NCBI GenBank assembly: GCA_023898465.1
Contig: CP060223.1
Coordinates: forward strand, 448,001 to 512,000
Direction of reading: 5' to 3'
DNA: 64,000 nucleotides
From: Candidatus Nomurabacteria bacterium
Lineage (GTDB): Bacteria > Patescibacteriota > Patescibacteriia > HK-STAS-PATE-3
The notes beneath the pieces were generated by a model. That model was not told the DNA's origin. It saw nothing but the letters and a program-made list of their open reading frames with translations, and searched no databases. A program made the position numbers and the translations under genes. Shown here in pieces: positions 17,274-32,059 of the stretch (the first letter of the stretch is position 1; every line of letters starts with the position of its first letter).

Positions 17274-18151
17274 AAAAGATAAAACTGCTATTCATCCTTG
17301 CCTGGCGAAATCTGCGTTGGACTTTTATTAAAGCAATTCACCTAAATGGCCAAATATCCGTACAAGTGTATGGAAAGAAAATTGTTCTCTATCTTAATCG
17401 TGTTGGATTAGACATCAAGGAGAATAATATTTTTAAACAGCTCGCTTTAGATCATAATCGCGAAGCTGAGGCCTCTAAGGTAATGCTAGACTTTATCGAG
17501 CCTGGAGACGAAATTTTTGAAGCCGGCGCAAATATTGGCTACTACGTTTTACTTGAAGCGAGTCGACTACAAGGCCAAGGTAAAATTTACGCAATTGAGC
17601 CAGATCCTAGTAACTACGAGCTACTTAAAAAAAATGTGGAGTTAAATGAACTGCAAAATTATGTTGATGTCCGTAAACTATCGGTCAGCGATAAAGTCGG
17701 TCACTCAGAATTTTTCCTAAGTAAGGATTCTAACCTGCACAGCTTCCTTCCGAGCGAAAATGATGAAGAGAGAACCTCAATTATGGTAGAGACAACTACC
17801 ATTGATGCCTTCTTAGCAGATAAACCAAAGGTTAACTTTATCCGAATGGACATAGAAGGCTATGAATGTCGAGTTATTTATGGGATGAAACAATTCCTTG
17901 CTAAGCCTGGCCCTTTAAAACTTTTTATTGAGCTGCATCCAAAGCTGGTTTCAAGGGAAGAAATGTTGAATTTGCTTACCATTTTGGAAGAAAGCGGTTT
18001 CACTATACATAAAGCAATCTCGCGAGATAACTATCTTCGGAAGCAGCTAGGACAAACCACTGTTGAGGAAATGACTATGGCTGAATTAAAGAGCGATCCG
18101 CGCTTGCTGGAAGAAAAACGCTCATTTGAAATGTTTTTCATAAAAAAATAA
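17270..18151 (+). CDS. FkbM-family SAM-dependent methyltransferase
   Basis: EAGANIGYYVL...IYAIEPDPSNYELLKKNVELNEL...SVSDKVGHSEF...FIRMDIEGYE, the FkbM-domain signature. Confidence 0.75.
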   Translation: MKKIKLLFILAWRNLRWTFIKAIHLNGQISVQVYGKKIVLYLNRVGLDIKENNIFKQLALDHNREAEASKVMLDFIEPGDEIFEAGANIGYYVLLEASRLQGQGKIYAIEPDPSNYELLKKNVELNELQNYVDVRKLSVSDKVGHSEFFLSKDSNLHSFLPSENDEERTSIMVETTTIDAFLADKPKVNFIRMDIEGYECRVIYGMKQFLAKPGPLKLFIELHPKLVSREEMLNLLTILEESGFTIHKAISRDNYLRKQLGQTTVEEMTMAELKSDPRLLEEKRSFEMFFIKK

Positions 18152-18152
18152 C

Positions 18153-19031
18153 ATGACCCAGGATGCTCAAAAACATCCCCTACTCACTGTCTGTATAGTT
18201 CACTACAGAAGGCTTGAGCAGCTCCAAAAAACAATAGATGCTCTTTTTCAAAATACCCGTACTGCATTTCTTCTCCGTGTGTATAACAACGGATACGAGG
18301 ATGATGGAATCAGGGAGTATCTAGATGGTATTAATCAGCGTAGCGATACTACGGTTATCTTTGACACAAAAAATATCGGCTGCTCCCCTGCTCGACACGA
18401 AATTGTAAAAAATATTGAGACACCCTTCATCCTCATGCTTGATGATGACATGTATGTAAATAAAGATTGGGACGTCCCCGTATTTAAAAAATTTGCAGAA
18501 AATCCTACGATTGGCGCTATTGGATTTTCAATTTATAAAATTGATGGGAGCTTCTGGTGGACAGGTGGACGCAATATTATTCTATCAAAAAAAGAAATTA
18601 AAATAGAGCGACCTCATATCGATCCAGAAAAATCAGACCTTGATTTTATAGAGCTTGATGATGTTGCCGCGGGGGCAATGATTTATCGAAAAGAACTTGA
18701 GGATATTATCGTTTGGGACAAGAATTATTTTATCGGCTTTGAGGATCTGGAGAAAGGTCTACATTTAAAACAGAGCAAATATTCCTGTCTCGTCTCAATT
18801 CAAAGTAAATTTATCCACGACAAAATATCTGAGAAACAGGAATACGCTGCTTATAACAATGCACGACGAAATTACCACGCCTACCGGAGAAGTTATCTAC
18901 ATTTTCTAAAGGAAAATAGATATCGTCTTGATTTGAAGCGCCATCTTTTCTACAAATATGTTTGTCTTCTTCCGAATAACATTCTGCAGAAGTTGGTATA
19001 TACTTGGTTAAGCATAAAAAAGAAGGGTTAG
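18153..19031 (+). CDS. GT2-like glycosyltransferase
   Basis: LLTVCIVHYRRLEQL...LMLDDDMYV (DxD-type) then GFEDLE, a GT-A-like arrangement. Confidence 0.6.
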   Translation: MTQDAQKHPLLTVCIVHYRRLEQLQKTIDALFQNTRTAFLLRVYNNGYEDDGIREYLDGINQRSDTTVIFDTKNIGCSPARHEIVKNIETPFILMLDDDMYVNKDWDVPVFKKFAENPTIGAIGFSIYKIDGSFWWTGGRNIILSKKEIKIERPHIDPEKSDLDFIELDDVAAGAMIYRKELEDIIVWDKNYFIGFEDLEKGLHLKQSKYSCLVSIQSKFIHDKISEKQEYAAYNNARRNYHAYRRSYLHFLKENRYRLDLKRHLFYKYVCLLPNNILQKLVYTWLSIKKKG

Positions 19032-19032
19032 T

Positions 19033-20823
19033 ATGAAAGAAATTCTACAGAAGCTTCAGGTGATTTTGCCACCAGGTGATAAGAAAAAAATCTTTGGCAT
19101 TTTTGTTTTAATGCTCATTGCAGCGATTTTAGAAGTTATCGGGATTAGTCTAATTCTTGCATTCATTTCAACGGTTTCTAATCCTGATACTCTTTTTCAA
19201 ATCACCTGGCTTGCCCCAATACTACAACGTGCAAATATTACGGATGCAAAAGGCTTACTTACCTACGGGTCGATTCTTCTCATTGTGCTCTTTGTTTTAA
19301 AAAATGCCTATATTATTTCGTTTCAGTATATCCAATCGCATTTCGTTTATCGCAGATTCAGCGCAATATCATCTCGGCTCTTTAATTCATACATGCGGGC
19401 GCCTTATATTTATCACCTTAATAATAATTCAGCTCGCCTTGTGCGTAATGTAACTGGAGAAACCACCTTACTCGTACACTACATCATGCTCCCCTTGCTG
19501 GTGGTGGTCATGGAATCAATCATGATCATTAGTATTAGTATCTTTCTTTTTGCGGTTGAGCCACTCAATACACTCATAGTGCTTTTCTTTGTCGGATCAA
19601 GTGGTATTTTTTTCCTTCGCTTAGTCAAAAAAAAGATTCAACACTTCGGATCTGAATCTCTGATTGAACGAGAAACTATGATTCGTCGCGTGAATGAAGG
19701 TGTTGGTGGTATAAAGGAAATACTCGTAAAGAATCGACAATCTTGGTTTATTAATGCGTTTACTCAATCGATCCATACTTACGCTAAAGCTGAAACATAC
19801 AAAAACATTTTTAAGATGAGCGCCCGGCCCGTTATTGAAACCGTTGCGGTGGCAGGCATGCTTTTAGTCGCCTTAGTACTCGTGTGGCAAGGACGTGGTG
19901 TAGAGTCGATCTTACCAGTACTAAGTCTCTTCGGCGTTGCCACATTTAAACTTATGCCCTCTTTAGATAAGGTTGTGAGTAATAGTAATGTGATTCGTTA
20001 TTACACTTATACGCTAAACTCAATCCATGATGATATTGCTGAGTTGAGTAAAATTGAAACTCCAATACACACAAACTCTGACAATAAAAAGATTTCCATC
20101 TCATCGACCTTAAGTCTTCAAAAGGTATATTTTCGCTACCCAGGCAGTGAGAAACAAGTGCTGCAAGATGTTAGTCTCACTATTCCAAAAGGTGCGGCAA
20201 TCGGATTTGTTGGCCCTTCTGGAGCTGGAAAAAGCACCATAGTGGATATTATCCTCGGACTACTGTCAATTGATTCGGGGCAAATCCTCGTTGATGGAAA
20301 AGATATAAAAAATACTATGGCAGCCTGGCAAAAAAATATCGGCTATATCCCGCAAACTATTTTCCTGGCTGATAATACTATTCGTAATAATATCGCCTTC
20401 GGACTAAACGACAATGAAATTAATGATGCACAGGTTTCTCGTGCTATTAAAATGGCACAGCTAGAAGAGTTCATTGCCTCCCTACCGCAAGGAGTGAACA
20501 CAATGGTTGGTGAACGAGGTGTTCGCTTAAGCGGTGGACAGAGACAGCGCATCGGTATTGCCCGAGCGCTTTATCATGACCCAGAGGTCTTAGTAATGGA
20601 TGAGGCGACATCCTCGCTTGATAATCAAACTGAAAAATATATTATTGATGCAATTGAAAACCTCAAACGGGATAGAACCATTATCATCGTGGCGCATCGT
20701 CTCAGTACAGTAGAGAATTGTGATAACTTGTTTTTCATCGAAAAAGGACACATAAAAGATTCTGGGACTTACTCACATATCATTCAACAAAACAGCGAGT
20801 TACTCGTAAATGAAAAAAGGTAA
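19033..20823 (+). CDS. Fused ABC exporter (TMD+NBD, MsbA/PglK-like); candidate lipid-linked glycan or polysaccharide exporter
   Basis: Six-helix N-terminal domain; Walker A GPSGAGKST, ABC signature LSGGQRQR, Walker B VLVMDEATS, and an H-loop. Confidence 0.85.
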   Translation: MKEILQKLQVILPPGDKKKIFGIFVLMLIAAILEVIGISLILAFISTVSNPDTLFQITWLAPILQRANITDAKGLLTYGSILLIVLFVLKNAYIISFQYIQSHFVYRRFSAISSRLFNSYMRAPYIYHLNNNSARLVRNVTGETTLLVHYIMLPLLVVVMESIMIISISIFLFAVEPLNTLIVLFFVGSSGIFFLRLVKKKIQHFGSESLIERETMIRRVNEGVGGIKEILVKNRQSWFINAFTQSIHTYAKAETYKNIFKMSARPVIETVAVAGMLLVALVLVWQGRGVESILPVLSLFGVATFKLMPSLDKVVSNSNVIRYYTYTLNSIHDDIAELSKIETPIHTNSDNKKISISSTLSLQKVYFRYPGSEKQVLQDVSLTIPKGAAIGFVGPSGAGKSTIVDIILGLLSIDSGQILVDGKDIKNTMAAWQKNIGYIPQTIFLADNTIRNNIAFGLNDNEINDAQVSRAIKMAQLEEFIASLPQGVNTMVGERGVRLSGGQRQRIGIARALYHDPEVLVMDEATSSLDNQTEKYIIDAIENLKRDRTIIIVAHRLSTVENCDNLFFIEKGHIKDSGTYSHIIQQNSELLVNEKR

Positions 20824-21904
20824 GAATATGAACACATTTAATGAAGAGTTAAATATATCAATAAAAAAGAATTTTCCTAATAATTATCAAGATAATGTTC
20901 TTCAAATACGGTTTAAAAAAAAGAAATTCAAAGTCTGGTTATTAGAAATATTATCGGATTTCACATACAGAATTGGATTGTTCAATCTAATTCTCAAAAG
21001 AAAAAAAATACTAATCGACAGTTTTCATTATCTTTATGATCGACTTAGCGACGACTATTCTAGAGAACTGTTAATACAAGTACTCACGTTCAGATTGTTG
21101 GGAAGTCGTAAAGTAAAGCTCCCGCTAAATGACGGTAACTACTTTAAGAGGATTGAAGACATTGAAAAAAGCGTTGCTAATAAAGACGATTTTCTCTCAC
21201 CAAACTTTTTAGACTGGAAATTATTTTTGTTTGATCTTGAGCAATATGGATATAAGGGAAAAGCATACTCGATAAGCCCAAGCATTTTTAGTAGCTTTGT
21301 ACAGCCGCAATACCAATATAATGGCACACTTATTGCAGCTAAGCCAGGCGACGTTGTTATTGATGCTGGAGCGTGTTGGGGCGAAACGGCTATGTATTTC
21401 GCTGAAAGGGTTAAAGAAAATGGAAAAGTGTACAGTTTTGAATTCCTACCTGAAAACCTCGAGGTAATGAGAAAAAACCTTTCTCTAAACCCAGAATATG
21501 CAAAACAAATTACCATGGTGGAAAAACCCGTATGGTCGAAAAGCAACGAGCCTATAACCTGCAACAACCTTGGTCCAGGAAACAAAGTTATTACTGGTGT
21601 AGATGAAGCATCAACTACTTATCATACAATCTCAATTGATGATTTTGCTGAACAAAATACACTTGAAAACGTTAACTTTATTAAAATGGATATAGAGGGA
21701 TCAGAGCTCGAGGCATTAAAAGGTGCTGAAAATGTAATAAAAAAATTTCGGCCTGTGTTGTCTATTTGCGTCTACCATAAACCAAGTGATTGCAAGCACA
21801 TTCCTGCCTATATTGAAAGCTTAAACTTGGGCTATAAGTTTTATTTTGACCACTATTCAATCTACGGTGAAGAAAGTGTACTCTTTGCGAAAGTCGAAAA
21901 CTAA
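20810..21904 (+). CDS. FkbM-family methyltransferase with N-terminal extension
   Basis: DAGACWGETAMYFAE...VYSFEFLPENLEVMRKNLSLN...FIKMDIEGSELEAL. A diverged paralog of the 17270 gene. Confidence 0.7.
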   Translation: MKKGKNMNTFNEELNISIKKNFPNNYQDNVLQIRFKKKKFKVWLLEILSDFTYRIGLFNLILKRKKILIDSFHYLYDRLSDDYSRELLIQVLTFRLLGSRKVKLPLNDGNYFKRIEDIEKSVANKDDFLSPNFLDWKLFLFDLEQYGYKGKAYSISPSIFSSFVQPQYQYNGTLIAAKPGDVVIDAGACWGETAMYFAERVKENGKVYSFEFLPENLEVMRKNLSLNPEYAKQITMVEKPVWSKSNEPITCNNLGPGNKVITGVDEASTTYHTISIDDFAEQNTLENVNFIKMDIEGSELEALKGAENVIKKFRPVLSICVYHKPSDCKHIPAYIESLNLGYKFYFDHYSIYGEESVLFAKVEN

Positions 21905-21905
21905 T

Positions 21906-23033
21906 ATGCAGAGCTCAAACCAACAACCAATTTATGTAACTAAACCAGCACTCCCGCCACTTGAAGAATTTACTGCTGAGCTAAAAACGATATGGGAGAA
22001 TCGAGTGCTAACAAATAATGGACCATTCCATCAACAATTTGAACTAGCCCTCGCTAAACATCTGGATGTTCCATTTGTATCTGTATTTAGCAATGGAACA
22101 CTTGCTTTGATGACTGCACTGCAATCACTTGATATCCAAGGTGAAGTTATTACTACCCCATTTAGCTTTGTCGCAACAACGCATGCACTTTGGTGGAACA
22201 AAATAACTCCAATATTTGCTGATATTGAATCAACTCATTTTACACTTGATCCTAATAAAACTGAGGAACTTATTACACCTCAAACAAGCGCGATCATGCC
22301 TGTGCACATTTATGGTTACCCATGCAGGACAAAGGAAATCGACATGATAGCAAAAAAGCATAATCTCAAGGTCATTTACGACGCCGCCCACGCCTTTGAT
22401 GTGAAGCAAGATGGTATTTCTGTATTAAATGCTGGCGACCTTTCTGTCCTAAGCTTTCATGCGACGAAAGTTTTTAATACAATTGAGGGTGGTGCGATCA
22501 TTTCCCATAGTGAAGAAATGAAAAATAGGATTGATCACCTAAAAAACTTTGGCTTTGAAGATGAGACAATAATAATTGGTCCCGGCATTAATGCCAAAAT
22601 GAACGAAGTGCAAGCTGCATATGGACTACTTCAACTAAAATATGTTGCTAAATATATAGAAGCCAGAAAAAGAATTGTAGAAAAATATCGTCTAGCACTA
22701 TCTGATATACCTGGCTTGCATTTCTTAGAAGACCAGGAAGGCGTACAAAATAATTACGCCTACTTCCCGATTGTTATTGATACAGAACATTGTATTCATA
22801 CGCGAGATTATATTTATGAGGAATTAAAAAAAGACAATATTTTTTCTCGTAGATATTTTTATCCACTCATAAGTAAAATTCCACTCTACGAAAATCTGGC
22901 GACAACTAAAGCAGCGCAGCTTCCGGTTGCATCTAAAATTAGCGAACAGGTTCTTTGTCTACCCTTATACCATGATTTAAGTGATAGTGATTTTACACGC
23001 ATCATTAGCAGTCTTAAAAGAATGCTTACATAG
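21906..23033 (+). CDS. DegT/DnrJ/EryC1/StrS-family PLP-dependent sugar aminotransferase
   Basis: Conserved LSFHATKVF lysine region, ...NGTLALMTALQSL..., and C-terminal ...CLPLYHDLSDSDF. Start taken at ATG 21906, immediately after the upstream stop. Confidence 0.8.
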   Translation: MQSSNQQPIYVTKPALPPLEEFTAELKTIWENRVLTNNGPFHQQFELALAKHLDVPFVSVFSNGTLALMTALQSLDIQGEVITTPFSFVATTHALWWNKITPIFADIESTHFTLDPNKTEELITPQTSAIMPVHIYGYPCRTKEIDMIAKKHNLKVIYDAAHAFDVKQDGISVLNAGDLSVLSFHATKVFNTIEGGAIISHSEEMKNRIDHLKNFGFEDETIIIGPGINAKMNEVQAAYGLLQLKYVAKYIEARKRIVEKYRLALSDIPGLHFLEDQEGVQNNYAYFPIVIDTEHCIHTRDYIYEELKKDNIFSRRYFYPLISKIPLYENLATTKAAQLPVASKISEQVLCLPLYHDLSDSDFTRIISSLKRMLT

Positions 23034-23045
23034 GAATCCATTCAG

Positions 23046-23747
23046 ATGAAAATAGCAATCATGCAGCCCTATTTTTTCCCTTATATCGGATATTTTCAGC
23101 TGATGAATGCTGTAGATGAATTTGTGGTTTACGACAACATTCAATATACCAAGAAGGGGTGGATCAATCGTAACCGTATCCTCCTCAATGGAAAAATTGA
23201 AACTATTTCTCTAGCGATAAAGAAAGATTCTGATTATCTCGATATACGCGACCGTTGCTTAGCTGATAATTGGATAAAGGAACGAAGTAGTATATTAAAC
23301 AGACTCAAATCCTCTTATCAGAAAGCCCCTTACTTCATTCCTACATATACTCTGGTTGAAAAGATACTCAAACAAGATTCGGTCAATCTTTTTGAATTTC
23401 TTTTTAACAGCCTGCAACTCATCAAAGAATATCTCCACATCCCCACCCCTCTTATCATTTCCTCTCAGGTTCCAGTCGACCATACGCTAAAATCAAGCGA
23501 GCGCGTATTGGCTATTTGCAAAGCACTCCAAGCAAATCAATATATTAATCCAATTGGTGGAACAGAATTATATACAAAAGAGCATTTCCTTAAAAATGGC
23601 GTTGCGCTCCAATTTCTCCGAACTCAAGCACATCATTACCAACAGTTTAATAAAGAACATGTACCCTATCTCTCTATTATAGATGTTATGATGTTTAATA
23701 GTCAGGAAGCGCTAAAGGACTTACTCCAAGAATACATTCTCGAATAA
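23046..23747 (+). CDS. WbqC-like family protein (O-antigen cluster-associated)
   Basis: N-terminus MKIAIMQPYFFPYIGYFQLMNAVDEFVVYDNIQYTKKGWINRNRI matches the WbqC family signature. Confidence 0.6.
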   Translation: MKIAIMQPYFFPYIGYFQLMNAVDEFVVYDNIQYTKKGWINRNRILLNGKIETISLAIKKDSDYLDIRDRCLADNWIKERSSILNRLKSSYQKAPYFIPTYTLVEKILKQDSVNLFEFLFNSLQLIKEYLHIPTPLIISSQVPVDHTLKSSERVLAICKALQANQYINPIGGTELYTKEHFLKNGVALQFLRTQAHHYQQFNKEHVPYLSIIDVMMFNSQEALKDLLQEYILE

Positions 23748-23756
23748 TAATCCCAT

Positions 23757-25061
23757 ATGCCCGCTCAAATAGATAAAAAAATTCGCGTACTCCTCTTCCC
23801 GGCTGGCTCAGAAATTGCTTTTGAAATTTATCACTCGCTTCGTCATAACCTCCACGTAGAAATATTTGGAGCTTCGGGAAAGTCTGATCACGCGAGCTAC
23901 TTATATGATTCCGAGCATTACTTCGAGGGTCCATATCAAATCTCCGACGAAAAATTTAATGACCACTTCACCGAGTTATTAAAAGAGCAAAAAATCGATA
24001 TGGTCATGCCAACACATGACTCAGTAACTGAATTTTTGGCAAAACACCGGGATAAATATCCAGCAAAAATTTTGACTTCTCCATACGAAAGCACAAGGAT
24101 AGCTCGACAGAAGATCCTCACCTACGAGCTTTTTCAAGCTTATGATTTCCTGCCAAAGCAGTATTTACCGCCATATCAGAATCTTGAGTATCCTATTTTC
24201 CTCAAGCCAAATCAGGGACAAGGCGGGAAAGGCACTTGTTTAGTTCATACATATGAAGAGCTGCAGGAACAAACCAGTAAGCAACCTGACTTAGTTGCTT
24301 ACGAATATTTACCAGGCGAGGAGCTGAGTGTTGATTGTTTTACCGATCGACATGGCCAGTTGCGTTTTATTGGACCAAGGACTAGAGCAAGAATTGATTT
24401 TGGCATTTCCTTTAGGACAGAGTCTCGTCCGGTCACTCAGGATATTCAGACAATTGCCGAAACAATAAATACAAAGGTTGCTATTCGAGGCGCGTGGTTT
24501 TTTCAAGTAAAAAAAGATAGCACAGGTAAATATAAACTCATGGAATTTGCAGTTCGCCAGGCAAGTACTATGGGTCTTTATCGTCAAATTGGAGTTAATT
24601 TTGCCTTACTCACGATATTCGACGCGCTCGACATCGATGTAAAGATTCTAAAAAATGACTATCCTATCACGCTTGATCGCAGAATGCTAAACCGATATAA
24701 AGCTGATTTCACTTACACAAAAGTATACATTGATTTCGATGATACAATTATCATCAATGAAAAAATTAACATTATCGCACTGCAGTTTCTCTATCAATGT
24801 AAATATGCTCATAAGAAAATTTGTCTTCTCACAAAACATGAGTTCGATCTCGATGAGACATTACAGAAATACTGCCTTGCAAAAAATCTATTTGACGAGA
24901 TTGTGATTTTACATCCTGGAGAGGACAAGACTGATCACATCGTTGCCGACGATGCAATTTTTATTGATAACTACTTTTTTGATAGAGAAAAAGTAAAGCA
25001 GCGTCACAATATTCCTGTATTTGATGTAGACGCCATCGAGAGTTTATTACTTAATACATAA
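23757..25061 (+). CDS. ATP-grasp enzyme fused to C-terminal HAD-like domain
   Basis: ATP-grasp core (YPIFLKPNQGQGGKGTCLV...EYLPGEELSVDCF) through ~aa 300, then a ~130-aa domain opening with IDFDDTII (HAD motif I, DxDxT). Confidence 0.6.
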   Translation: MPAQIDKKIRVLLFPAGSEIAFEIYHSLRHNLHVEIFGASGKSDHASYLYDSEHYFEGPYQISDEKFNDHFTELLKEQKIDMVMPTHDSVTEFLAKHRDKYPAKILTSPYESTRIARQKILTYELFQAYDFLPKQYLPPYQNLEYPIFLKPNQGQGGKGTCLVHTYEELQEQTSKQPDLVAYEYLPGEELSVDCFTDRHGQLRFIGPRTRARIDFGISFRTESRPVTQDIQTIAETINTKVAIRGAWFFQVKKDSTGKYKLMEFAVRQASTMGLYRQIGVNFALLTIFDALDIDVKILKNDYPITLDRRMLNRYKADFTYTKVYIDFDDTIIINEKINIIALQFLYQCKYAHKKICLLTKHEFDLDETLQKYCLAKNLFDEIVILHPGEDKTDHIVADDAIFIDNYFFDREKVKQRHNIPVFDVDAIESLLLNT

Positions 25062-25064
25062 GGC

Positions 25065-26030
25065 ATGTTCCGCTGGAAGAAACTAGGAAAAGTATTTGAC
25101 CCAACACAAAACGGAAATGATGCGTGGATGCAGACTTTTGCTCAAGCTCCTGCCACTTTAGTTTTTGATTCTTTTGTTCGAGTATATTTTTCTTGTCGGC
25201 CACTTCCGGACAAAAATGGTCAAGCGACAAGCTATGCCGGCTTTGTTGATCTTGATCGAAAAAACCTTTTTAATATTCTTAGGATCTCAAAAAAACCCGT
25301 GCTTCCGCTTGGAGAAATTGGTAGTTTTGACGAGTTTGGTATTATGCCCATCTCAGTCATTCGAGATAAGCATCGATTACTCGCTTACTATGGCGGATGG
25401 ACTCGATGCGTTTCCGTTCCATTCAATATCGCTATTGGTCTGGCTGAAAGTAAGGACAATGGGGAAACTTTTGAAAAAATTGGCCCTGGACCCGTACTCT
25501 CGTATAGCCCTGATGAGCCGTTCTTAGTTGCGGTTCCTAAAATTAGGAAATTTCAAAATCGCTGGTTTCTCTGGTATACCGCCGGGACTCATTGGAGAAA
25601 AGTAAATGGAAAGACTGAGGCGGTTTATGGCATCCGGATGGCTACATCAACTGACGGCGTTACATGGAAAAAAGAGCATCGAAAAATTATTCCAAACGTT
25701 TTAGGTGAGAACGAGGCGCAAGCAAGCGCTGACGTTTATTTTGCTAACGACATCTATCACATGTTTTTTTGCTATCGGCATACTTCTGATTTTCGTACAA
25801 ATAAAGATCGGGCTTATCGGATTGGCTATGCTTACTCTCAGGATGGATTTCATTGGCAGCGTGACGATTCACGGGTAGGCATCGACATATCGACTGAAGG
25901 ATGGGATTCAGAAATGATCTCTTTTCCTCATATTTTTTCACTGGACGGAAAAACCTACATGCTCTACTTGGGAAATAACTTTGGTCGAGAAGGGTTTGGA
26001 ATTGCTGAACTTGAAGGGAGTTTACAATAA
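25065..26030 (+). CDS. Five-bladed beta-propeller glycosidase/phosphorylase-like protein (GH43/GH32/GH130-like fold), paralog 1
   Basis: Shares WKKLGKVFDP, FRTNKDRAYRIGYAYSQDGFHWQRDD, EGWDSEMISFPHIF and GFGIAELE blocks with the next gene. Family assignment rests on my recollection of these motifs. Confidence 0.45.
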   Translation: MFRWKKLGKVFDPTQNGNDAWMQTFAQAPATLVFDSFVRVYFSCRPLPDKNGQATSYAGFVDLDRKNLFNILRISKKPVLPLGEIGSFDEFGIMPISVIRDKHRLLAYYGGWTRCVSVPFNIAIGLAESKDNGETFEKIGPGPVLSYSPDEPFLVAVPKIRKFQNRWFLWYTAGTHWRKVNGKTEAVYGIRMATSTDGVTWKKEHRKIIPNVLGENEAQASADVYFANDIYHMFFCYRHTSDFRTNKDRAYRIGYAYSQDGFHWQRDDSRVGIDISTEGWDSEMISFPHIFSLDGKTYMLYLGNNFGREGFGIAELEGSLQ

Positions 26031-26031
26031 T

Positions 26032-26985
26032 ATGCACTGGGAAAAACTCGGAAAAATTTTTGATCCGTCCCAACACAATCTTCCAAACGATTGCAAGCTT
26101 TTCGCGCAATCGCCTCAGGTGTTACTTTTGGACGACCGAATACGGATATATTTTTCTACCCGACAAGCAGATACACCCACAACCTACCTCAGTCATATTG
26201 CTTATGTCGATTTTACAAATGACTTTTCTAAAGTACTTGAAGTCTCAAAAAAAACCGTACTTCCTTTAGGGAAACTTGGCACCTTTGATGAACACGGCAT
26301 CTTTCCAATGAATGTCTTAAGGTTTCAAGATCGAGTACTAGGGTTCACAAGCGGCATTTCTCGTAGATCTTCTGTATCAGTGGAAACATCTATTGGCCTG
26401 GTGGAAAGCTTTGATAACGGAGAAAGCTTTCAGCGAAATAGTGATGGCCCTATCCTTACCTCCTCTCTTCATGAGCCATTTATGGTAGGCGATCCTTTTG
26501 TCCAAGCATACGAAGGAAAACTTCATATGTGGTACATCAACGGAGTACGATGGAAACCAAAAACAGCCCAGGAACCTGCTGCACGAGTATACAAAATTGC
26601 TCATGCAACTTCCTTAGACGCCATACATTGGCAAAATGATAATCGTCAAATTATTAGTGACGTTCTCAATGCCGATGAGTGTCAGGCGCTTCCTACTGTA
26701 ATTAAAATTAAGCAAAGGTACTACATGTACTTTTGCTATCGCGAAGCCAGTGATTTTCGAACAAACAAAAATCGTGCGTATCGAATTGGATGCGCCTATT
26801 CGGATGACCTTACCCATTGGACTCGAGATGATGCCCAAGCTGGTATCACTGTTTCAGACCAGGGCTGGGATTCAGAAATGCAGTGCTACCCTCACGTCTT
26901 TCAAAAAGATGATGTAATATATTTACTTTATAATGGAAACGCCTTCGGCCGCGATGGTTTTGGCTTAGCTAAGCTTGTTGGATAA
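26032..26985 (+). CDS. Five-bladed beta-propeller glycosidase/phosphorylase-like protein, paralog 2
   Basis: WEKLGKIFDP, FRTNKNRAYRIGCAYSDDLTHWTRDD, QGWDSEMQCYPHVF and GFGLAKL. About 40-45% identical to paralog 1. Start at ATG 26032, 1 nt after the upstream stop. Confidence 0.45.
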   Translation: MHWEKLGKIFDPSQHNLPNDCKLFAQSPQVLLLDDRIRIYFSTRQADTPTTYLSHIAYVDFTNDFSKVLEVSKKTVLPLGKLGTFDEHGIFPMNVLRFQDRVLGFTSGISRRSSVSVETSIGLVESFDNGESFQRNSDGPILTSSLHEPFMVGDPFVQAYEGKLHMWYINGVRWKPKTAQEPAARVYKIAHATSLDAIHWQNDNRQIISDVLNADECQALPTVIKIKQRYYMYFCYREASDFRTNKNRAYRIGCAYSDDLTHWTRDDAQAGITVSDQGWDSEMQCYPHVFQKDDVIYLLYNGNAFGRDGFGLAKLVG

Positions 26986-26990
26986 TACCT

Positions 26991-27938
26991 ATGAATTCTG
27001 ATTCTCCTCTCGTCAGTGTAGTATGCGTCACATACAATCATGGTCCATATATTGCAGAAGCAATAGAAAGTTTTTTACAGCAAGAAACTGACTTCCCTTT
27101 TGAAATTATCATTGGAGAAGACTTCAGTACAGACGAAACCAGGGAAATTTGCTTGGAATATGCAAAAAAGTACCCTGATAAAATCCACCTAGCGATTTCT
27201 GATGGAAATGTCGGGGCACGTAATAATTATTTTCGCGCTTTGTCAGCCGCACGAGGAAAATATATTGCATTTTGTGAAGGAGATGATTACTGGTCGGATC
27301 CAAAAAAGTTGGCAATCCAAATTGGCTACATGGAAAAACATCCAGAGTGCAGTCTCACCTTCCACTCGGTTCGAATTATCAACGGAGATAAAGCAACCAA
27401 TAAGACGATTCGTCCCTTTAACAAAAAAACAATTATTCCAAAAAATACCTTTTTTGGCTACGGCACGATGGCACCATCCCCCACTCTTGTGTATCCCAGA
27501 AAATATATTATAGACCCACCTGATTGGCTTCGTCACTCGCCTGTTGGGGATATACCCTTGAAGCTCTATCTCTCTCAACTTGGTACAGTAGTATATCTGG
27601 ATAAAATCATGGCCATGCGAAGAATTGGCGTCGAGGGTTCGTGGAGTAAACGCATGCAAACTTTTTCATACCGACAAAAACTCTTTCCAGGTATGATTGT
27701 AATGCTTGAAGGTTTTAACGAATTTAGTAAATATATATATGCCTATCAAGTACTAAAAAAACAGCTAAGCTACGAAATTAAAAGTGTGAAAAATCCAATA
27801 ACAAAAGTAAGACAAATGCTAAAACTCATCCGAACAAAATATTCAAAATCGTACTCTTCTCTTTCGCTTACAAAAAAAATGTTTGCAATTGGTAATCTAT
27901 TTATCACAAGCATAGTTGAACAGGTAGCACGTCGTTAG
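26991..27938 (+). CDS. GT2 glycosyltransferase
   Basis: VSVVCVTYNHGPYIAEAIESFLQQ...EIIIGEDFSTDETREI...GDDYW, GT-A with a DxD-type motif. Confidence 0.75.
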   Translation: MNSDSPLVSVVCVTYNHGPYIAEAIESFLQQETDFPFEIIIGEDFSTDETREICLEYAKKYPDKIHLAISDGNVGARNNYFRALSAARGKYIAFCEGDDYWSDPKKLAIQIGYMEKHPECSLTFHSVRIINGDKATNKTIRPFNKKTIIPKNTFFGYGTMAPSPTLVYPRKYIIDPPDWLRHSPVGDIPLKLYLSQLGTVVYLDKIMAMRRIGVEGSWSKRMQTFSYRQKLFPGMIVMLEGFNEFSKYIYAYQVLKKQLSYEIKSVKNPITKVRQMLKLIRTKYSKSYSSLSLTKKMFAIGNLFITSIVEQVARR

Positions 27939-27940
27939 CC

Positions 27941-28831
27941 ATGGAACCCACTACATATCCAAACAGCCCGGTGTTCTTAATAGGCTCCCCGCGCAGTGGA
28001 AAAACAATACTGCACACCTTACTTGCGCAAGGTAATGACTTCGCCTGGTTTTCCCAATACTCAAGCAAATTTTATACTCATACTTGGCCGGCTTATTTAC
28101 CACGTATATATCAAATTCCATGGCTGGGAAGATATTTACAAAAACATGCTCGTTTACGCATACTCCCCCACCCTGAAGAAATTTCTCACAAGTTTATTCC
28201 AATAATGACTCAGTACGGTTCACTTGAGCAAACTCATGTGAATGAAGCAAATCAAAAAAAACTGCAGCACTGGGTGAGAAAACAAATGCAAGCGCAGAAA
28301 AAAAATCGTATGCTCATTGACTGCGGCCGACCTGCTCGCATATCTTTTTATCACAAAGTCTTTCCTGAGGCAAAATTTATTCACCTTATCAGAGATGGGC
28401 GCGCAGTAGCAGTTGAAATGCTCCGTAGTTACCCTTATATGTTTACTGAAAAAAGTAGTATTGATAGTTATTTTATCCAGACGCCCGAGGAATTTAAAAA
28501 CTACTTACCTAAAAAAAGCGATGATCCATCTCGACCTCTCATTTTAGCCGCCCTGTACTGGAAAATGTCTGTTCGTGAAATTGAGCGGCAAGCCAACCCA
28601 CTTGGAGAGGATGTTTTATCCATCCGATTTGAGGATATTCTCCAAAATCCTACTTCGGAGCTAGAAAAAATCTGTCGCTTTGTGGAATCGGCAAACTCTG
28701 CTAAAATCATCAAGTCTGCTAAGGTTCAGCGATTTCAGTATAAGGATGCCTCCCAGCTCATGGACAAGCAAGGCTACGAGAAATTGACCCATATACTGCA
28801 TGACGAGCTAAAAAACTATGGCTACATTTAA
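27941..28831 (+). CDS. Sulfotransferase family protein
   Basis: 5'-PSB motif FLIGSPRSGKTILH and 3'-PB-like IRDGRAVAVEM (RDGR), with a FIHLIRDGR context. Confidence 0.65.
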   Translation: MEPTTYPNSPVFLIGSPRSGKTILHTLLAQGNDFAWFSQYSSKFYTHTWPAYLPRIYQIPWLGRYLQKHARLRILPHPEEISHKFIPIMTQYGSLEQTHVNEANQKKLQHWVRKQMQAQKKNRMLIDCGRPARISFYHKVFPEAKFIHLIRDGRAVAVEMLRSYPYMFTEKSSIDSYFIQTPEEFKNYLPKKSDDPSRPLILAALYWKMSVREIERQANPLGEDVLSIRFEDILQNPTSELEKICRFVESANSAKIIKSAKVQRFQYKDASQLMDKQGYEKLTHILHDELKNYGYI

Positions 28832-28858
28832 CCATTTAGTATTCAGAAAAGTAAGCAT

Positions 28859-29575
28859 ATGATGGATCTCGATATACTTAAGAAACGTGCTGATGATCGC
28901 TGGTTTGTAGTGGATCGATCAAAAGGCAAAAGGGTCTTAGAAATCGGTTGCGTAAACCATACTATTGAAGGAATTGAGGAGCAGCGCAGGATTGGCACTT
29001 GGCTTTTTGATTATCTCCACGTGTATGGAACTCATGCTACTGGTATTGATATTGACCAACCAGCAATTGACCATTTAGCCAAACAGGGCTACGACATCCG
29101 GTATGGAGATGGGCAAGATTTTAATCTGAACGAAGAGTTTGAAGTTATTATTGCATCAAAAGTAATTGATCATCTTACCAATATTGATGGTTTCCTAAAA
29201 AGCTGTAAAAAGCATCTCTCTCCCGACGGTAAACTCATTATCACTGATGACAACATTCTCTGCGTTCCTCAGCTCCTGACATGGTATGCAAAGAAAAATG
29301 TTGGACATCCTGACGATGATATAACTGTAAAAATTATTCCGGAGTACTTCCGCCTCTTTGTGAGGCGCTATGGCTTTGAGGTCGAAGAAATACATTATGT
29401 AGTTGGCACAGGAAATTCTTTTCTCTTCAAGCTGTTCCGTTTCATAAAAAAAATAATGCCAAAGCGCCTAGTACATGAACCGCTTTTTTATCCAAACTAC
29501 ATCATTCAATTACGTCATCGTACGAATGAAGAGAGCGAGAAGGGTGCTACTGCACATCACTCGCATCAGCACTAG
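28859..29575 (+). CDS. Class I SAM-dependent methyltransferase
   Basis: VLEIGCVNH (motif I-like), ...IIASKVIDHL..., LSPDGKLIITD (motif III-like). Confidence 0.55.
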   Translation: MMDLDILKKRADDRWFVVDRSKGKRVLEIGCVNHTIEGIEEQRRIGTWLFDYLHVYGTHATGIDIDQPAIDHLAKQGYDIRYGDGQDFNLNEEFEVIIASKVIDHLTNIDGFLKSCKKHLSPDGKLIITDDNILCVPQLLTWYAKKNVGHPDDDITVKIIPEYFRLFVRRYGFEVEEIHYVVGTGNSFLFKLFRFIKKIMPKRLVHEPLFYPNYIIQLRHRTNEESEKGATAHHSHQH

Positions 29576-32057
29576 GCGGATCAATGATCTCGTAAACACT
29601 TACACCCTGTACCGATCCAATTGCTTGAAAGTATTTTGATGGATCAATTTTGGTGTTGAGATTCTCTTCATTTTCATCATAGTACTCCACATCTTCGTAA
29701 AGCTTAGAGAGGATCAAATCGGAACGATCTGTAGCTATTTTGTCGGTGGAATCAGTGAAGAGATAGAGTAAAGAGATAAAGTTATTTTGACCTTTGGTGT
29801 CTATAAAAGTACTTAGGTGGTATTTTTCCATTGCTCCAGGAAAACCTAAATCGCTAATATCCTTCCTGAGACTTTCCAATTCTGCTTGATTCGAAATCGC
29901 ACTTAGCTGCACAAATGGCTGGTGTGTATATAAATAAAGCACACGGTATTCTGAAGAATATGTCATGGCCTTACTGTTAGCGTCGCTATTCTTCAATATT
30001 ACGTCTCGTATGGCCTGCACTTCGAGTTGAGATAACTTACTTTGAAGAAAGTACTCTGGTGTAGGATTTAAAGTAAGCCCCATAGTTAATAATATGAGTG
30101 TAAATGTTGCTATAGTGCTCTTCTTTGATAAGACGAGGTTCTTCTCAATTTGATACAAAACACCGCCCACAAAAAGAACCATGGTCAAAACAAAAATATG
30201 ATTATAATACCATGCAAAGCGAATTGACTTTGAAGCCAGGATTAAAAAAATAAATGAAGTAAAGAAGAAAGTGAGGAGTATATAAAATTTCTTGCGGGGT
30301 AGAAACCAAAATGTACCTAAAGAGATAAAAAATACAAAGCTGATAAAGGGTGTACTCATATACCGAACTCTATCAAACAATTGTAGATAGAAATCCACGT
30401 TTAAGAGCAACGATGTATCTGTTAGGAATTCACCACCAAGAGCTTGTAGGGACTTTCGCAAAAAGAAAAGAGAGAGTAGTAGAAAAAATGCCCCAGTAGA
30501 AATAAGGCTTGTCCGCCAAACTTTTTTGTTTCTTTGCAGCAAACGAAGTGCCTTAGTAAATGGATATTTAAGAACCAGATAAATACCTAAAACTAGTAAT
30601 AGGAATACCACAAGCATAGTAATATTTCTCCCCCACTCATCAGCATGTGCCGGCAAGCTGCGGAGAAAAAGGGTAAAGAAAATATACGGAGAAAAGCTTG
30701 CTAATGCCAACTTAATTAAATGCAACATCTTTTCCTTTTCGAGGAAGAGTACGAGTAAAGCAAGAAGTGGACCGCCTATTACGACAAACGATAACTTACA
30801 TAAGAAGGCAAAACCAAGGATGATGAAAGAGGCGTCTCTTTTCCCGTAAAGGTATAAATTAACTGAGCAAAGCAAAAAACATAGTGCTGTTGCATCAAGT
30901 GTTGTGGTCCAAGTCAATAAATTAAAAACTGGAGTAAGTGAAAAAATGTACGTAAGTGCAATTGCTACAAGAGGTGAAAAAAGTCGTCTGGTTAATAAAA
31001 ATATGCTTCCTAAAATAAAGGAGCCAACAATAGTAAGATATATACGAACAATTGACTCATCGCTAAAATATGACCTCAAACTAAAGAATGGAGCAAGGGT
31101 CCACTCAAGTACCGGCATACGCCAAAATGTACCGTACTCCTGATCTTCAGCACTTCCAAAAATTCCTGCGTAAGCGGGGTTTCTGAATACAAATGGATTT
31201 TTTGCTTCATACATTTCTTGAGCAACTGGCACATAGCTCACATATTTTCCAGGGTGAAGTTTAATAAAAAACGAGTCATGGAAATATGGGACTCGAATTG
31301 CAAAATAATTCAACAGAATTAATGCCAACAAAAAAATGGATAAAACGTTCTTTTTACGAAAAAGTATGAACAATGTAGGAAGCAAAGGGATGCGACTAAA
31401 ACGGGAATGGCTAAAACGAATTTTTCTATACAGCTTTTCACTACTGTCTTCATCGTGGGCTGCCACATCTTCGATTTTGCGTTCACGATATATCACTTTA
31501 TTATTTAATATAAGCCAAATGAAGAATAATAGAGCCGTACTGTACAAGACTGCACTTACGGGCGTATTTAATATAGTCACAAAAATTCCACGCTGCTGTG
31601 TAAAGGTTGCCACAAGCGATATAATCAAAACAGCCAACAAAACAATCCCGTAATGAAGTGATGGGATTTGCATTTTTTCAAGACTTTTTTCTCTACGAAG
31701 TCTATTTGTGAAAGTAAAAAGCAAGGCGAGCGTCAACACAAGCACAAAGAAGCTTAAATAAGCGCTCACATCGGTACTTTGTATCAAGACCCTCTCTATG
31801 TGGACAGCGCTCCATACGTTTACCCAAATTGCGAGTGCTATTAACAAAGTAAATGATATCTTTCTTCTTAAAGTGTCCCGTATTCCTTGATAGGCAAAAA
31901 GAATCAAGATACTAAGGAAAATATTAATTTGTAAAAAACGCAAAGATAATTCGATCATCTCAATAGCCAGATCTCGATTCCAAAAGAAAACTAAACAAAT
32001 AGCGCCGAGAAAAATTGGTGGCAAGTATTTGAATGTCTTATGAAAAAAATGTGACAT
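29547..32057 (-). CDS. Large polytopic membrane protein, GT-C-like (ArnT/PMT/YfhO-type) glycosyltransferase candidate, paralog A (836 aa)
   Basis: More than 15 hydrophobic segments. The block NPFVFRNPAYAGIFGSAEDQEYGTFWRMPVLEWTLAPFFSL is shared with the next gene (NPFWHQRKY...FNDFSHIPVLEWSLAGTYTLLP). Has a C-terminal ~200-aa soluble domain. No WWDYG motif. Confidence 0.5.
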   Translation of the reverse strand: MSHFFHKTFKYLPPIFLGAICLVFFWNRDLAIEMIELSLRFLQINIFLSILILFAYQGIRDTLRRKISFTLLIALAIWVNVWSAVHIERVLIQSTDVSAYLSFFVLVLTLALLFTFTNRLRREKSLEKMQIPSLHYGIVLLAVLIISLVATFTQQRGIFVTILNTPVSAVLYSTALLFFIWLILNNKVIYRERKIEDVAAHDEDSSEKLYRKIRFSHSRFSRIPLLPTLFILFRKKNVLSIFLLALILLNYFAIRVPYFHDSFFIKLHPGKYVSYVPVAQEMYEAKNPFVFRNPAYAGIFGSAEDQEYGTFWRMPVLEWTLAPFFSLRSYFSDESIVRIYLTIVGSFILGSIFLLTRRLFSPLVAIALTYIFSLTPVFNLLTWTTTLDATALCFLLCSVNLYLYGKRDASFIILGFAFLCKLSFVVIGGPLLALLVLFLEKEKMLHLIKLALASFSPYIFFTLFLRSLPAHADEWGRNITMLVVFLLLVLGIYLVLKYPFTKALRLLQRNKKVWRTSLISTGAFFLLLSLFFLRKSLQALGGEFLTDTSLLLNVDFYLQLFDRVRYMSTPFISFVFFISLGTFWFLPRKKFYILLTFFFTSFIFLILASKSIRFAWYYNHIFVLTMVLFVGGVLYQIEKNLVLSKKSTIATFTLILLTMGLTLNPTPEYFLQSKLSQLEVQAIRDVILKNSDANSKAMTYSSEYRVLYLYTHQPFVQLSAISNQAELESLRKDISDLGFPGAMEKYHLSTFIDTKGQNNFISLLYLFTDSTDKIATDRSDLILSKLYEDVEYYDENEENLNTKIDPSKYFQAIGSVQGVSVYEIIDPPSADASDVQ

Positions 32058-32059
32058 TA

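Follow-up and report, generated by a model that had tools for sequence, protein, structure and literature searches.

A co-inherited pair of predicted five-bladed propeller proteins in a widespread bacterial cassette for a probable amino sugar

The GH130 beta-1,2-mannoside phosphorylases (Teth514_1788/1789, PDB 9fj8 and 7fip; Uhgb_MS, 9erh), to which the GT108 mannosyltransferases are related, have in common with A and B, two proteins encoded side by side in a Candidatus Nomurabacteria genome, a five-bladed propeller fold. A second point of comparison is the C-terminal domain of BT_0996, a GH137 beta-L-arabinofuranosidase (PDB 5mt2, 5mui); BT_0996 belongs to the polysaccharide utilization system of a gut Bacteroides and has a degradative role. 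The GH130 enzymes are dimers, some of which bind and use GDP-mannose at the interface between the subunits, and one arginine decides whether they have phosphorylase or hydrolase activity (PMC12814180). A related gene order is found in the module of E. coli O121 and Shigella dysenteriae 7, RmlB-RmlA-VioA-WbqC-GNAT, for D-Qui4N(N-acetylglycyl). The O antigen of E. coli O121 carries N-acetylglycine (PMC7685785).

A and B are encoded in the window, a stretch of 64,000 nucleotides (GenBank CP060223.1, positions 448,001 to 512,000), within a run of 15 + strand genes from 14231 to 29575 that overlap or are separated by gaps of at most about 30 nt (Table 1). The products of these genes are glycosyltransferases, methyltransferases, an exporter, an aminotransferase and related functions, in agreement with a preliminary description of this DNA that had placed the pair in a biosynthetic operon. 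That description had also reported two adjoining, related proteins of ~320 aa at 25065-26985 with roughly 40-45% identity and shared motif blocks, and these features were confirmed. Two + strand ORFs were found at the positions given, BLASTP gave 45% identity across 319 residues (E 3e-103), a likeness far beyond chance, and all three quoted blocks, (R/H)W.KLGK.FDP, FRTNK.RAYRIG.AYS.D..HW.RDD and GWDSEM...PH.F, were found in both A and B. The A stop codon (26028-26030) is followed by a single base and then by the B ATG at 26032. A Shine-Dalgarno-like GAAGGGAG inside the 3' end of A, read directly from the DNA, ends 11 nt upstream of that ATG and suggests that B is translationally coupled to A. 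The length of B is counted from this ATG, where the ORF lister takes an upstream TTG at 25981. Scans for promoters and terminators across 13.8-30.2 kb returned sites no more commonly than in shuffled sequence.

Table 1. Positions of the propeller genes and neighboring features in the window
Feature	Position	Strand	Remarks
DegT-family sugar aminotransferase, VioA/DesI-like, constant partner	21906..23033	+	Pfam PF01041, 316 bits
WbqC-family protein, constant partner	23046..23747	+	Pfam PF08889, 232 bits
ATP-grasp ligase, C-terminal extension of about 120 aa	23757..25061	+	Pfam ATPgrasp_Ter, ATP-grasp_3
Propeller A, A-type lineage	25065..26030	+	321 aa
Shine-Dalgarno-like GAAGGGAG for B	26013..26020	+	within 3' end of A; read from sequence
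Propeller B, B-type lineage	26032..26985	+	317 aa counted from ATG
GT2 glycosyltransferase directly 3' of B	26991..27938	+	Pfam PF00535

The best NCBIfam match of the window DegT protein was DesI (287 bits, under the equivalog cut-off). The ATP-grasp ligase is a window-specific insertion between WbqC and A and is unrelated to the ATP-grasps of other loci. A Pfam search of its C-terminal extension gave no match, and a reading of the extension as a HAD phosphatase, based on a DFDDT motif alone, was set aside. A phosphoesterase or possible HAD-like extension was seen beside A in the window and in CPR-like relatives. The GT2 next to B is the probable transferase for the cassette sugar. Neither the cassette GNAT nor the conserved 2P7H-like methyltransferase (see below) is present in the window, and the link of the pair to those two steps is thus not universal.

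Structure prediction produced a model with five blades, as had been proposed earlier from the repeat pattern. The closest structural and sequence relatives of A and B are glycosidases and phosphorylases, and a fold search of a viral structure library returned distant propellers only (TM <= 0.66). Sequence links to GH130 appear weak but real. Against the GH130 Pfam profile PF04041 (cut-off 26), A scored 29.4 bits and B 23.1 bits, the latter under the cut-off; there was an NCBIfam match to beta-1,2-mannobiose phosphorylase (E 3e-13), with equivalog scores of 50 and 36 bits against a cut-off of 450; and the A1 profile matched 7fip (E 1.2e-09). The best PF04041 stretch of A was confined to residues 248-304, against profile positions 64-118 of 320, and no full-length match above the curated cut-off was found. 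The score against GH43 (PF04616) was 15 bits, compared with a cut-off of 32.2. For GH32 (PF00251), A reached 23.6 bits against 22.1, yet its best stretch covered residues 192-304 only. The GH32 NDPN motif was found in neither A nor B; in blade IV, B has an 'EC' dipeptide (DECQALP) and A has EAQ. No sequence-level family match to GH137 was found, and A and B are 17-19% identical to the BT_0996 domain. The earlier interpretation of the pair was thus partly supported. We consider A and B a new family within the GH130/GH43/GH32/GH137 superfamily.

Database names for A and B disagree, and include glycosylase, sialidase, GH32, GH43/DUF377 and hypothetical protein. The names 'glycosylase', 'exo-alpha-sialidase' and 'SacC GH32', together with the weak Pfam matches to GH32, GH43 and GH130, would be in keeping with A and B being ordinary degradative or trimming glycoside hydrolases that are in this locus by chance, an explanation we regard as highly improbable. 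This is because the Pfam matches extend over no more than one or two blades, where they pick up motifs resembling Asp boxes, and the pair shows strict synteny with sugar-nucleotide enzymes in all 78 genomes that could be assessed, with no transporters or catabolic genes beside it in the loci read. Further, no obvious N-terminal signal peptide is seen in either protein when the sequences are read by eye, and we infer that both are cytoplasmic. The NCBI name 'exo-alpha-sialidase' probably also reflects Asp-box-like motifs, e.g., ATSTDGVTW at 193-201; BNR_4 scored 17 bits against a cut-off of 27.3, and the model has five blades where a sialidase has six.

Mapping of catalytic residues by sequence alignment to GH130, GH32 and GH117 structures gave placements shifted by one or two blades and was rejected, as the alignments are driven by blade motifs of the IGYA.S.DG..W kind and are unusable for this purpose. 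Residue equivalences with GH130, GH43 and GH32 are by topology and motif position only. In 49 aligned A and B sequences, the invariant polar residues are located at the starts of strand 1 or in the strand 2-3 loops of the model, the usual active-site face of such propellers, and most of them are kept in 87 more distant representatives. In the 49 sequences, strand 1 of blade I carries an invariant Gln27 and, in contrast to GH43 and GH32, no conserved carboxylate, whereas carboxylates are present in blade III (E151) and blade IV (E217). In blade II, the invariant pair D89/E90 comes before strand 1, at the position of the GH130 'EDPR' in 7fip (an equivalence that is topological only), and invariant R39, R45, R114 and R244 are on the same face. 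The alignment has a single invariant histidine, H289. Were A and B to act on the N-linked substituent, either as amidases or deacetylases in the manner of the propeller GalNAc deacetylase or by reshaping the amino-acid moiety attached by WbqC or the ATP-grasp enzyme, the anomeric carbon would be untouched. We find this distinctly improbable, as H289 is lost in the wider family, the closest relatives are the glycosidases and phosphorylases noted above, and it is hard to see what a deacylase beside acyltransferases would do in a pathway that starts from dTDP-glucose.

The pair is ancient and always inherited together. B was directly downstream of A in each of the 78 testable genomes, which represent many phyla, with a spacer of -4 to 24 nt (median 12 nt, 78 loci). 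Identity to orthologs of the same type is 60-68%, compared with 45% to the other type, and window B is 60-66% identical to its orthologs across phyla. By these comparisons of sequence, A-type and B-type orthologs form separate lineages across phyla, and for this reason the duplication is not local. A profile search found about 1,000 cluster representatives (E < 1e-30) among 1.8 billion proteins, and cassette hosts include Proteobacteria, Bacteroidota, Firmicutes, Verrucomicrobiota, Chlamydiota, Nitrospirota, Actinobacteriota and CPR lineages. DNA queries with the pair, or with the stretch from WbqC to B, matched none of 5,426 E. coli genomes in either near or distant mode. A single-copy clade, C, shares about 37% identity with A and with B; its partners DegT, WbqC and an LbH acyltransferase are kept in all four loci, one of which also has rmlA, rmlB and rmlC adjoining. 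No natural A-B fusion (about 640 aa) was seen among the best 150 representatives, and such support for a physical complex is thus missing. One apparent relative, P0335 (1,935 aa), was rejected as a family member, as it matches only via the repeated blade motifs of a surface protein.

The genes around the pair are in the order VioA-like DegT aminotransferase, WbqC, A, B, GNAT and methyltransferase, usually with a GT2 next. DegT was within 8 kb of A in 65 of the 78 loci and WbqC within 6 kb in 72, and the window has the arrangement that defines the cassette, A followed by B with WbqC and DegT nearby. In three loci (L067, L076 and L082) an ATP-grasp-like protein takes the place of WbqC. A stand-alone cassette was observed on a Rhizobium plasmid, and pRlvE of R. 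leguminosarum carries the pair as RLV_RS02615 and RLV_RS02620. Fusions were also found: three independent B-type representatives (P0248, P0250 and P0261) have a GNAT fused at the C-terminus, and a GNAT-methyltransferase fusion was confirmed by Pfam in L002 and is likely in three more loci, as judged from a protein of about 400 aa in the methyltransferase cluster. We infer that WbqC is an N-aminoacyl or acyl ligase for the 4-amino sugar. A WbqC profile run against PDB sequences returned noise only, a single-sequence structure model had a pLDDT of 35 and was unusable, and the literature found on WbqC consisted of annotation-level mentions alone.

Across loci and many phyla, identity was 75% for the methyltransferase, 71% for A-type and 65% for B-type orthologs, 56% for WbqC, 52% for DegT, 42% for GNAT and 26% for GT2. 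A and B are therefore among the best-conserved cassette genes, behind the methyltransferase alone, and this profile is typical of precursor enzymes, not of glycosyltransferases. These values bear on the explanation that A and B serve as glycosyltransferases of the cassette itself, with a hydrolase fold (GT108-like or Uhgb_MS-like). Each would use an NDP-sugar or sugar-1-phosphate as donor and extend a lipid-linked, protein or glycan acceptor by one sugar, the two paralogs making two successive linkages. We judge that explanation rather unlikely. The true GT2s of the same loci are far less conserved, and acceptor-specific transferases are rarely so constant, especially with acceptors that here range from flagellin to O-antigen-like glycans. 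In addition, a GT2 or polyprenol-phosphate GT2 is already 3' of the cassette in most loci, and the B-GNAT fusions point to small-molecule steps.

The explanation we favor, tentatively and with a confidence somewhat short of even, is that A and B are an ancient, co-inherited cytoplasmic propeller pair, a new family that works within the precursor part of a mobile cassette and has GH130/GT108-like chemistry, probably as a heterodimer. The cassette product would be an N-acylated or N-aminoacylated 4-amino-4,6-dideoxyhexose (viosamine-type) for surface glycans and flagellin. The VioA-like aminotransferase would place the 4-amino group onto an NDP-4-keto-6-deoxyhexose, WbqC (or the ATP-grasp enzyme instead) would link this amine to an acyl group or amino acid, GNAT or an LbH acyltransferase and methyltransferases would complete the substituent, and the poorly conserved GT2 would pass the sugar on. 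A and B would act jointly, probably as a heterodimer derived from a homodimeric single-copy ancestor, on the phosphate-activated anomeric center of an intermediate (NDP-sugar or sugar-1-phosphate). Their chemistry would be non-hydrolytic, with D89/E90 supplying an acidic residue at the blade II mouth as the putative proton donor, E151, E217 and D281 as further candidate carboxylates of blades III-V, and the phosphate or diphosphate possibly held by an arginine-rich site of R39, R45, R114 and R244 with Y251. The heterodimer is suggested by co-inheritance and by dimeric relatives only, and two successive reactions by separate enzymes would leave the same genomic pattern. A point against our preferred explanation is that such NDP-sugar pathways do not normally need a C1 enzyme to be complete and that a GT2 is already 3' of the cassette, which leaves the need for a reaction at the anomeric center unclear. 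A more specific version, which we think unlikely, is that the heterodimer, as a new CAZy-type family, catalyzes an undescribed nucleotide-sugar step, e.g., a phosphate- or acceptor-dependent one at C1 of N-aminoacylated viosamine, downstream of WbqC, which itself may be an undescribed N-aminoacyl transferase for amino sugars, perhaps dependent on aminoacyl-tRNA. No biochemical data for any member of the A/B family were found.

The combination of a DegT, a GNAT and a 'glycosylase' also resembles the PseC, PseH and PseG arrangement of the pseudaminic acid pathway. The names of that pathway are given elsewhere (PMC13317340). A and B could accordingly be PseG-like nucleotide-sugar hydrolases that free a finished or half-finished amino sugar for re-use, condensation or export, or that proof-read wrong intermediates. 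Consecutive steps would suit the B-GNAT fusions, and the phosphoesterase or possible HAD-like extension beside A would fit as well. We nevertheless rate this as quite improbable. No synthase, kinase or nucleotidyltransferase that could make use of a free sugar is encoded in the cassette, the GT2 3' of it needs an activated donor, the C. sporogenes island already carries its own PseG, and the general-base position of hydrolytic GH43 and GH32 in blade I has no conserved carboxylate. The possible likeness of PseG to A and B is functional, in that PseG acts at C1 of an N-acylated 4-amino-6-deoxy nucleotide sugar and is encoded beside a DegT and a GNAT. PseG differs in having a GT-B fold (Pfam Glyco_tran_28_C), not a propeller, and the A/B cassette has no downstream synthase.

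The pair is not peculiar to one genome but part of a widespread cassette that is found also on rhizobial plasmids and in flagellin glycosylation islands of soft-rot pathogens and C. sporogenes. Once worked out, the A/B reaction would name thousands of genes, would probably add a family to the few hydrolase-fold enzymes that work in synthesis, and would help predict flagellin and surface glycan structures that affect plant immune recognition. If the heterodimer acts together with WbqC as outlined, the route to amino-acid-decorated sugars of flagella and cell surfaces would be a widespread one, reaching from CPR bacteria as far as Clostridium and plant pathogens.

Comparison with known systems places these findings in context. 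The flagellin islands carry the same cassette: a methyltransferase, glycosylase, WbqC, DegT and two hypothetical proteins have been reported from the fliA-fliC island of Dickeya zeae WH1, a seven-gene island has been reported at the same place in Pectobacterium atrosepticum SCRI1043, and in C. sporogenes the flagellar island contains DegT-WbqC-A-B-GNAT-MT in full. The methyltransferase of the cassette matches PDB 2P7H/2P7I (380 bits), and 2P7H is, we assume, ECA1738 of P. atrosepticum. No published structure was found for the glycans of the Pectobacteriaceae or C. sporogenes islands. The window differs from these islands in that its cassette is inside a long glycan operon with a PglK-like exporter and no flagellar locus. 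Relative to GH130 and GT108, A and B are only 16-19% identical, match in sequence over one or two blades and out of register, occur as an obligate pair, and have a genomic context of making amino-sugar precursors, as opposed to breaking down mannosides or building mannan. The E. coli O121 cluster (rfbB-rfbA-DegT-WbqC-GNAT) shares the order of aminotransferase, WbqC and GNAT with the cassette, and its proteins are 50% (DegT) and 37% (WbqC) identical to those of the window and 29% identical (GNAT) to the cassette GNAT of L003. It has no propeller and no conserved methyltransferase, whereas in the cassette A and B are inserted between WbqC and GNAT. The N-acetylglycine of its O antigen presumably sits on D-Qui4N. 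As a module without propellers and with a known sugar, E. coli O121 offers a clean experimental baseline for the cassette.

Two adjacent and related proteins of about 320 aa, which we call A and B, had been placed in a biosynthetic operon by the preliminary description of this sequence, and the ORFs lie exactly there. Their products are 45% identical across 319 residues (BLASTP, E 3e-103), and all three motif blocks quoted in that description are found in both. Both proteins are 100% identical to ones from a Candidatus Nomurabacteria MAG. The A stop codon (26028-26030) is followed, after a single base, by the ATG of B, and the placement of GAAGGGAG inside the end of A, ahead of that ATG, suggests that translation of the two genes may be coupled. 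The surrounding operon was also confirmed, as a closely packed run of 15 glycan genes encoding an SDR epimerase/dehydratase, GT2, GT4 and second GT2 glycosyltransferases, two FkbM methyltransferases, a PglK/MsbA-like ABC exporter, a DegT aminotransferase, WbqC and an ATP-grasp ligase, then A and B, the rest being a third GT2, a sulfotransferase and a methyltransferase. GC content is 0.36-0.40 over the 16-34 kb glycan locus and 0.44-0.53 in its flanks, and homologs of A and B from CPR bacteria are not closer than those from proteobacteria; both features would fit acquisition of the locus by horizontal transfer.

The convergent minus-strand operon looks like an Arn-type module for lipid-carrier glycosylation, and one of its SDRs has weak ArnA/UXS-like matches; its last gene shares 29 nt (29547-29575) with the last gene of the plus-strand operon. 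Outside the glycan locus, a GC-rich stretch (0.52-0.53) has genes for an M23 peptidase and for a 507 aa protein without Pfam matches.

Features of the window, with coordinates and strand
Feature	Coordinates	Strand	Remarks
Plus-strand operon	14231-29575	+	15 genes
WbqC	23046-23747	+	
ATP-grasp ligase (ATPgrasp_Ter type)	23757-25061	+	additional to WbqC
Propeller A	25065-26030	+	321 aa ORF
GAAGGGAG	26013-26020	+	within 3' end of A; 11 nt upstream of B ATG
Propeller B	26032-26985	+	317 aa counted from ATG; ORF listing starts at upstream TTG 25981
Sulfotransferase (PF13469/PF00685)	27941-28831	+	second gene after B
Convergent operon	29547-39199	-	two PMT_2-type (GT-C) membrane glycosyltransferases (836 and 650 aa), UDP-glucose dehydrogenase, two SDRs, MetK (SAM synthetase), small GT2
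Genes outside the glycan locus	39731-46000 (- strand); 8979-12284		S8 subtilase with FG-GAP repeats (931 aa), PDZ/trypsin-like protease, two bacterial TSP3 repeat proteins
tRNA-Gln (single)	46914-46987		

Sequence profiles by themselves gave weak, partial evidence for the family of A and B. Against the Pfam GH130 profile (cut-off 26 bits), A scored 29.4 bits, with a best stretch of only 57 residues, and B 23.1 bits; A reached 23.6 bits with GH32N (cut-off 22.1), also over a partial stretch, and 15 bits with GH43, under the cut-off of 32.2. The NCBIfam beta-1,2-mannobiose phosphorylase model matched A at E 3e-13 and 50 bits, far under its equivalog cut-off of 450. No curated family can claim A or B. 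Their NCBI name, exo-alpha-sialidase, probably derives from Asp-box-like blade motifs such as ATSTDGVTW. The predicted five-bladed propeller proved right. An AlphaFold2 model of A (input alignment of 49 A-type and B-type sequences; pLDDT 94.8, pTM 0.93) was all-beta, with five four-stranded blades, the fifth closed by the N-terminal strand. Its structural matches, all at 6-19% identity, were the GH137 enzyme BT_0996 (5mt2, score 29.3), a GH130 beta-1,2-oligomannan phosphorylase (9fj8, 28.4), GH159 (7zei, 27.4), several GH43 enzymes (25-27), Uhgb_MS (9erh, 26.2), several GH117 and GH32 enzymes (24-26), a propeller GalNAc deacetylase (6n1b, 24.3) and a Leishmania protein (2b4w, 19.4). Foldseek agreed (TM 0.75 to BT_0996, 0.70 to 7fip).

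Searches with A bring up over 7,000 relatives, and the top 120 share 59-68% identity with it; B has a separate set at 59-66%; between the two types, identity in the joint alignment is about 45-52%. With each species represented by one genome, a scan found 80 loci, distributed over Beta-, Gamma-, Delta- and Alphaproteobacteria, Campylobacterota, Bacteroidota, Verrucomicrobiota, Chlamydiota, Myxococcota, Nitrospirota, Acidobacteriota, Actinobacteriota, Chloroflexota, Omnitrophota, Firmicutes and CPR groups. Wherever there was room downstream (78 of 78 loci), B followed A on the same strand, with a spacer of -4 to 24 nt (median 12). The duplication is ancient and the pair obligate. When 1.84 billion cluster representatives were searched with a profile, 998 proteins matched with E < 1e-30, and the full-length representatives comprised 14 A-type, 24 B-type and 87 that were neither. 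In the largest third clade, clade C (medoid P0304, ~37% identical to A and to B), the propeller is single-copy at each of the four loci read. Most simply, a single-copy and probably homodimeric ancestor would have been duplicated once to give A and B; GH130 relatives are dimers (PMC12814180). Two very long representatives also matched the A/B profile: P0241 (5,844 aa) in 31 stretches, at 745 bits, and P0335, an apparently membrane-anchored surface protein of 1,935 aa, in nine. P0335 was rejected as a true family member, being a long run of blade-like IGYA.S.DGINW repeats.

Unbiased clustering of neighboring ORFs in 61 loci revealed a dominant order of DegT aminotransferase, WbqC, A, B, GNAT (150 aa), a class I SAM methyltransferase (248 aa) and usually a GT2. 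The methyltransferase (e.g., 4384-5130 in locus L061) scores above the NodS Pfam cut-off and has a 380-bit match to PDB 2P7H/2P7I, an entry deposited under the name "hypothetical protein". This order was seen in Epsilonproteobacteria (Campylobacterota) metagenome contigs, a soil MAG, Mariprofundus aestuarium, plasmid pRlvE of Rhizobium leguminosarum (stand-alone, seven genes, with an IS3 element splitting the WbqC region) and the island for flagellar glycosylation in Clostridium sporogenes. Two more cases come from the literature. Dickeya zeae WH1 is reported to carry genes for a methyltransferase, a glycosylase, WbqC, DegT and two hypothetical proteins between fliA and fliC, and for Pectobacterium atrosepticum SCRI1043 an island of seven genes has been reported at that position (PMC12310338). 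The window has neither the GNAT nor the 2P7H-like methyltransferase, so the constant core is DegT, WbqC or another ligase, and the propellers. Such synteny speaks against ordinary degradative or trimming hydrolases, which we regard as a very improbable role for A and B. The DegT/GNAT neighborhood would suit NDP-sugar hydrolases resembling PseG; this too is unlikely, as the cassette has no consumer of free sugar, and in C. sporogenes it lies beside a complete pseudaminic acid gene set with its own PseG.

Frequent outer neighbors are polyprenol-phosphate-type GT2 enzymes with GtrA-like or small membrane proteins and large GT-C-like membrane proteins, Wzm/Wzt ABC transporters, GT41/TPR protein glycosyltransferases and, in some loci, rmlA, rmlB and rmlC. 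In five loci (L031, L034, L038, L061 and L088, the last from Mariprofundus), a 3-hydroxyacyl-CoA dehydrogenase and a second NodS-like methyltransferase lie between WbqC and A, and a 186 aa Acetyltransf_3 enzyme replaces the GNAT, which suggests that a 3-hydroxybutyryl-type N-acyl group may be made in those organisms. Two clade C loci with single-copy propellers, from Paraburkholderia and a proteobacterial MAG (L090 and L097), have two PhyH-family dioxygenases and TylF-type and NodS-type methyltransferases, with a GT61 glycosyltransferase in L090 and a GT41/TPR one in L097; such genes would indicate a sugar with heavier tailoring that probably serves in protein glycosylation. The Mariprofundus locus has several sulfotransferases, as the window has one, a hint that certain versions of the system may make sulfated glycans.

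The window DegT scored best against DesI/VioA-type 4-aminotransferases. For comparison, the O121 O-antigen cluster, found in E. coli strain RM8352 (locus L095), runs tviB-like, epimerase, rfbB, rfbA, DegT, WbqC, GNAT, wzx, GT2, acetyltransferase, wzy, asnB, two GT4 genes and gnd, and contains no propeller gene. Identity to the O121 proteins is 50% for the window DegT, 37% for its WbqC (against the O121 WbqC at 5812-6528 in L095) and 29% for the cassette GNAT. From the published O121 structure, we take D-Qui4N to be the residue that carries the antigen's N-acetylglycine. This N-acetylglycine is amide-linked (PMC7685785), and WbqC and GNAT are the only candidates in O121 for glycine addition and its acetylation. 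WbqC (PF08889) is termed uncharacterized throughout the literature found. Its O121 position between VioA and GNAT, the antigen's N-acetylglycine, a 399 aa ATP-grasp-like protein (assigned by reading its sequence) in its place in three loci, the extra ATP-grasp in the window and a Streptomyces operon that combines WbqC, a ProRS paralog and a dedicated tRNA (PMC10404621) together suggest that WbqC is ligase-like and may N-aminoacylate or acylate 4-amino sugars, possibly with aminoacyl-tRNA as donor. A and B might act on the N-linked substituent, in keeping with their strict link to WbqC and with O121; their closest relatives do not match such a role, and we consider it quite unlikely. The window ATP-grasp has a C-terminal extension of ~120 aa, with no domain by Pfam, in which a DFDDT motif resembles HAD motif I; CPR loci L066 and L069 instead have a separate ATP-grasp and a metallophosphoesterase ahead of A.

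Several observations indicate that A and B work on precursors, not on the polymer. Mean pairwise identity among loci is highest for the methyltransferase (75%), followed by A (71%), B (65%), WbqC (56%), DegT (52%) and GNAT (42%), and only 26% for the GT2 after the cassette. Such constancy over phyla and acceptors (flagellin, O-antigen-like glycans and CPR surface glycans) is typical of enzymes that act on a common small molecule. A B-type propeller is fused to a C-terminal GNAT in three independent representatives, the gene after B in locus L002 holds both GNAT and methyltransferase domains, and proteins of ~400 aa in the methyltransferase cluster after B in three more loci are read as the same fusion. 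WbqC accompanies the propellers in 72 of 78 loci, with the ATP-grasp-like stand-in in three of the other six, and all four clade C loci keep DegT, WbqC and an LbH acyltransferase. No obvious signal peptide or hydrophobic segment was seen by eye at the N-terminus of A or B.

The polar residues Q27, R39, R45, D89, E90, R114, S117 and E151 are invariant in all 49 A and B sequences, as are E217, Q219, R244, Y251, W280, D281 and H289; R39, R45, D89, E217, R244, Y251, W280, D281 and N304 are retained across the 87 distant representatives. By the DSSP string of the model, D89/E90, E151, E217 and D281 lie at or just before the innermost strand of blades II-V, and R45, R114 and R244 are in the turn that leads to strand 3, where strand 2 ends or just beyond. 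Both positions are on the active-site side in propellers of this superfamily. The first strand of blade I, which bears the base or nucleophile in GH43 and GH32, has Gln27 and lacks a conserved carboxylate. D89/E90 coincide, in motif position only, with the blade II "EDPR" motif of GH130 in 7fip. In GH130, a conserved phosphate-binding arginine distinguishes phosphorylases from hydrolases, and some members bind GDP-mannose across the dimer interface (PMC12814180). From the residue pattern and this comparison, we tentatively hypothesize that an A/B heteromer would catalyze a GH130/GT108-like, non-hydrolytic reaction at a phosphate-activated anomeric center. Against this, a viosamine-type pathway does not obviously require this reaction, and the cassette already has a GT2 after it. 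That A and B are instead dedicated hydrolase-fold glycosyltransferases has precedent, yet fits the conservation pattern poorly and seems rather doubtful. All functions given here for A, B and their partners are ones that we infer.

A literature search that covered subscription papers in part found no description of the A/B family, its obligate pairing, the constant company of WbqC and a VioA-like aminotransferase, or its place in a cassette that is found across many phyla and in flagellin islands of plant pathogens. The fold and superfamily are already known, and there is precedent for biosynthetic enzymes of hydrolase fold in GT108 and Uhgb_MS.
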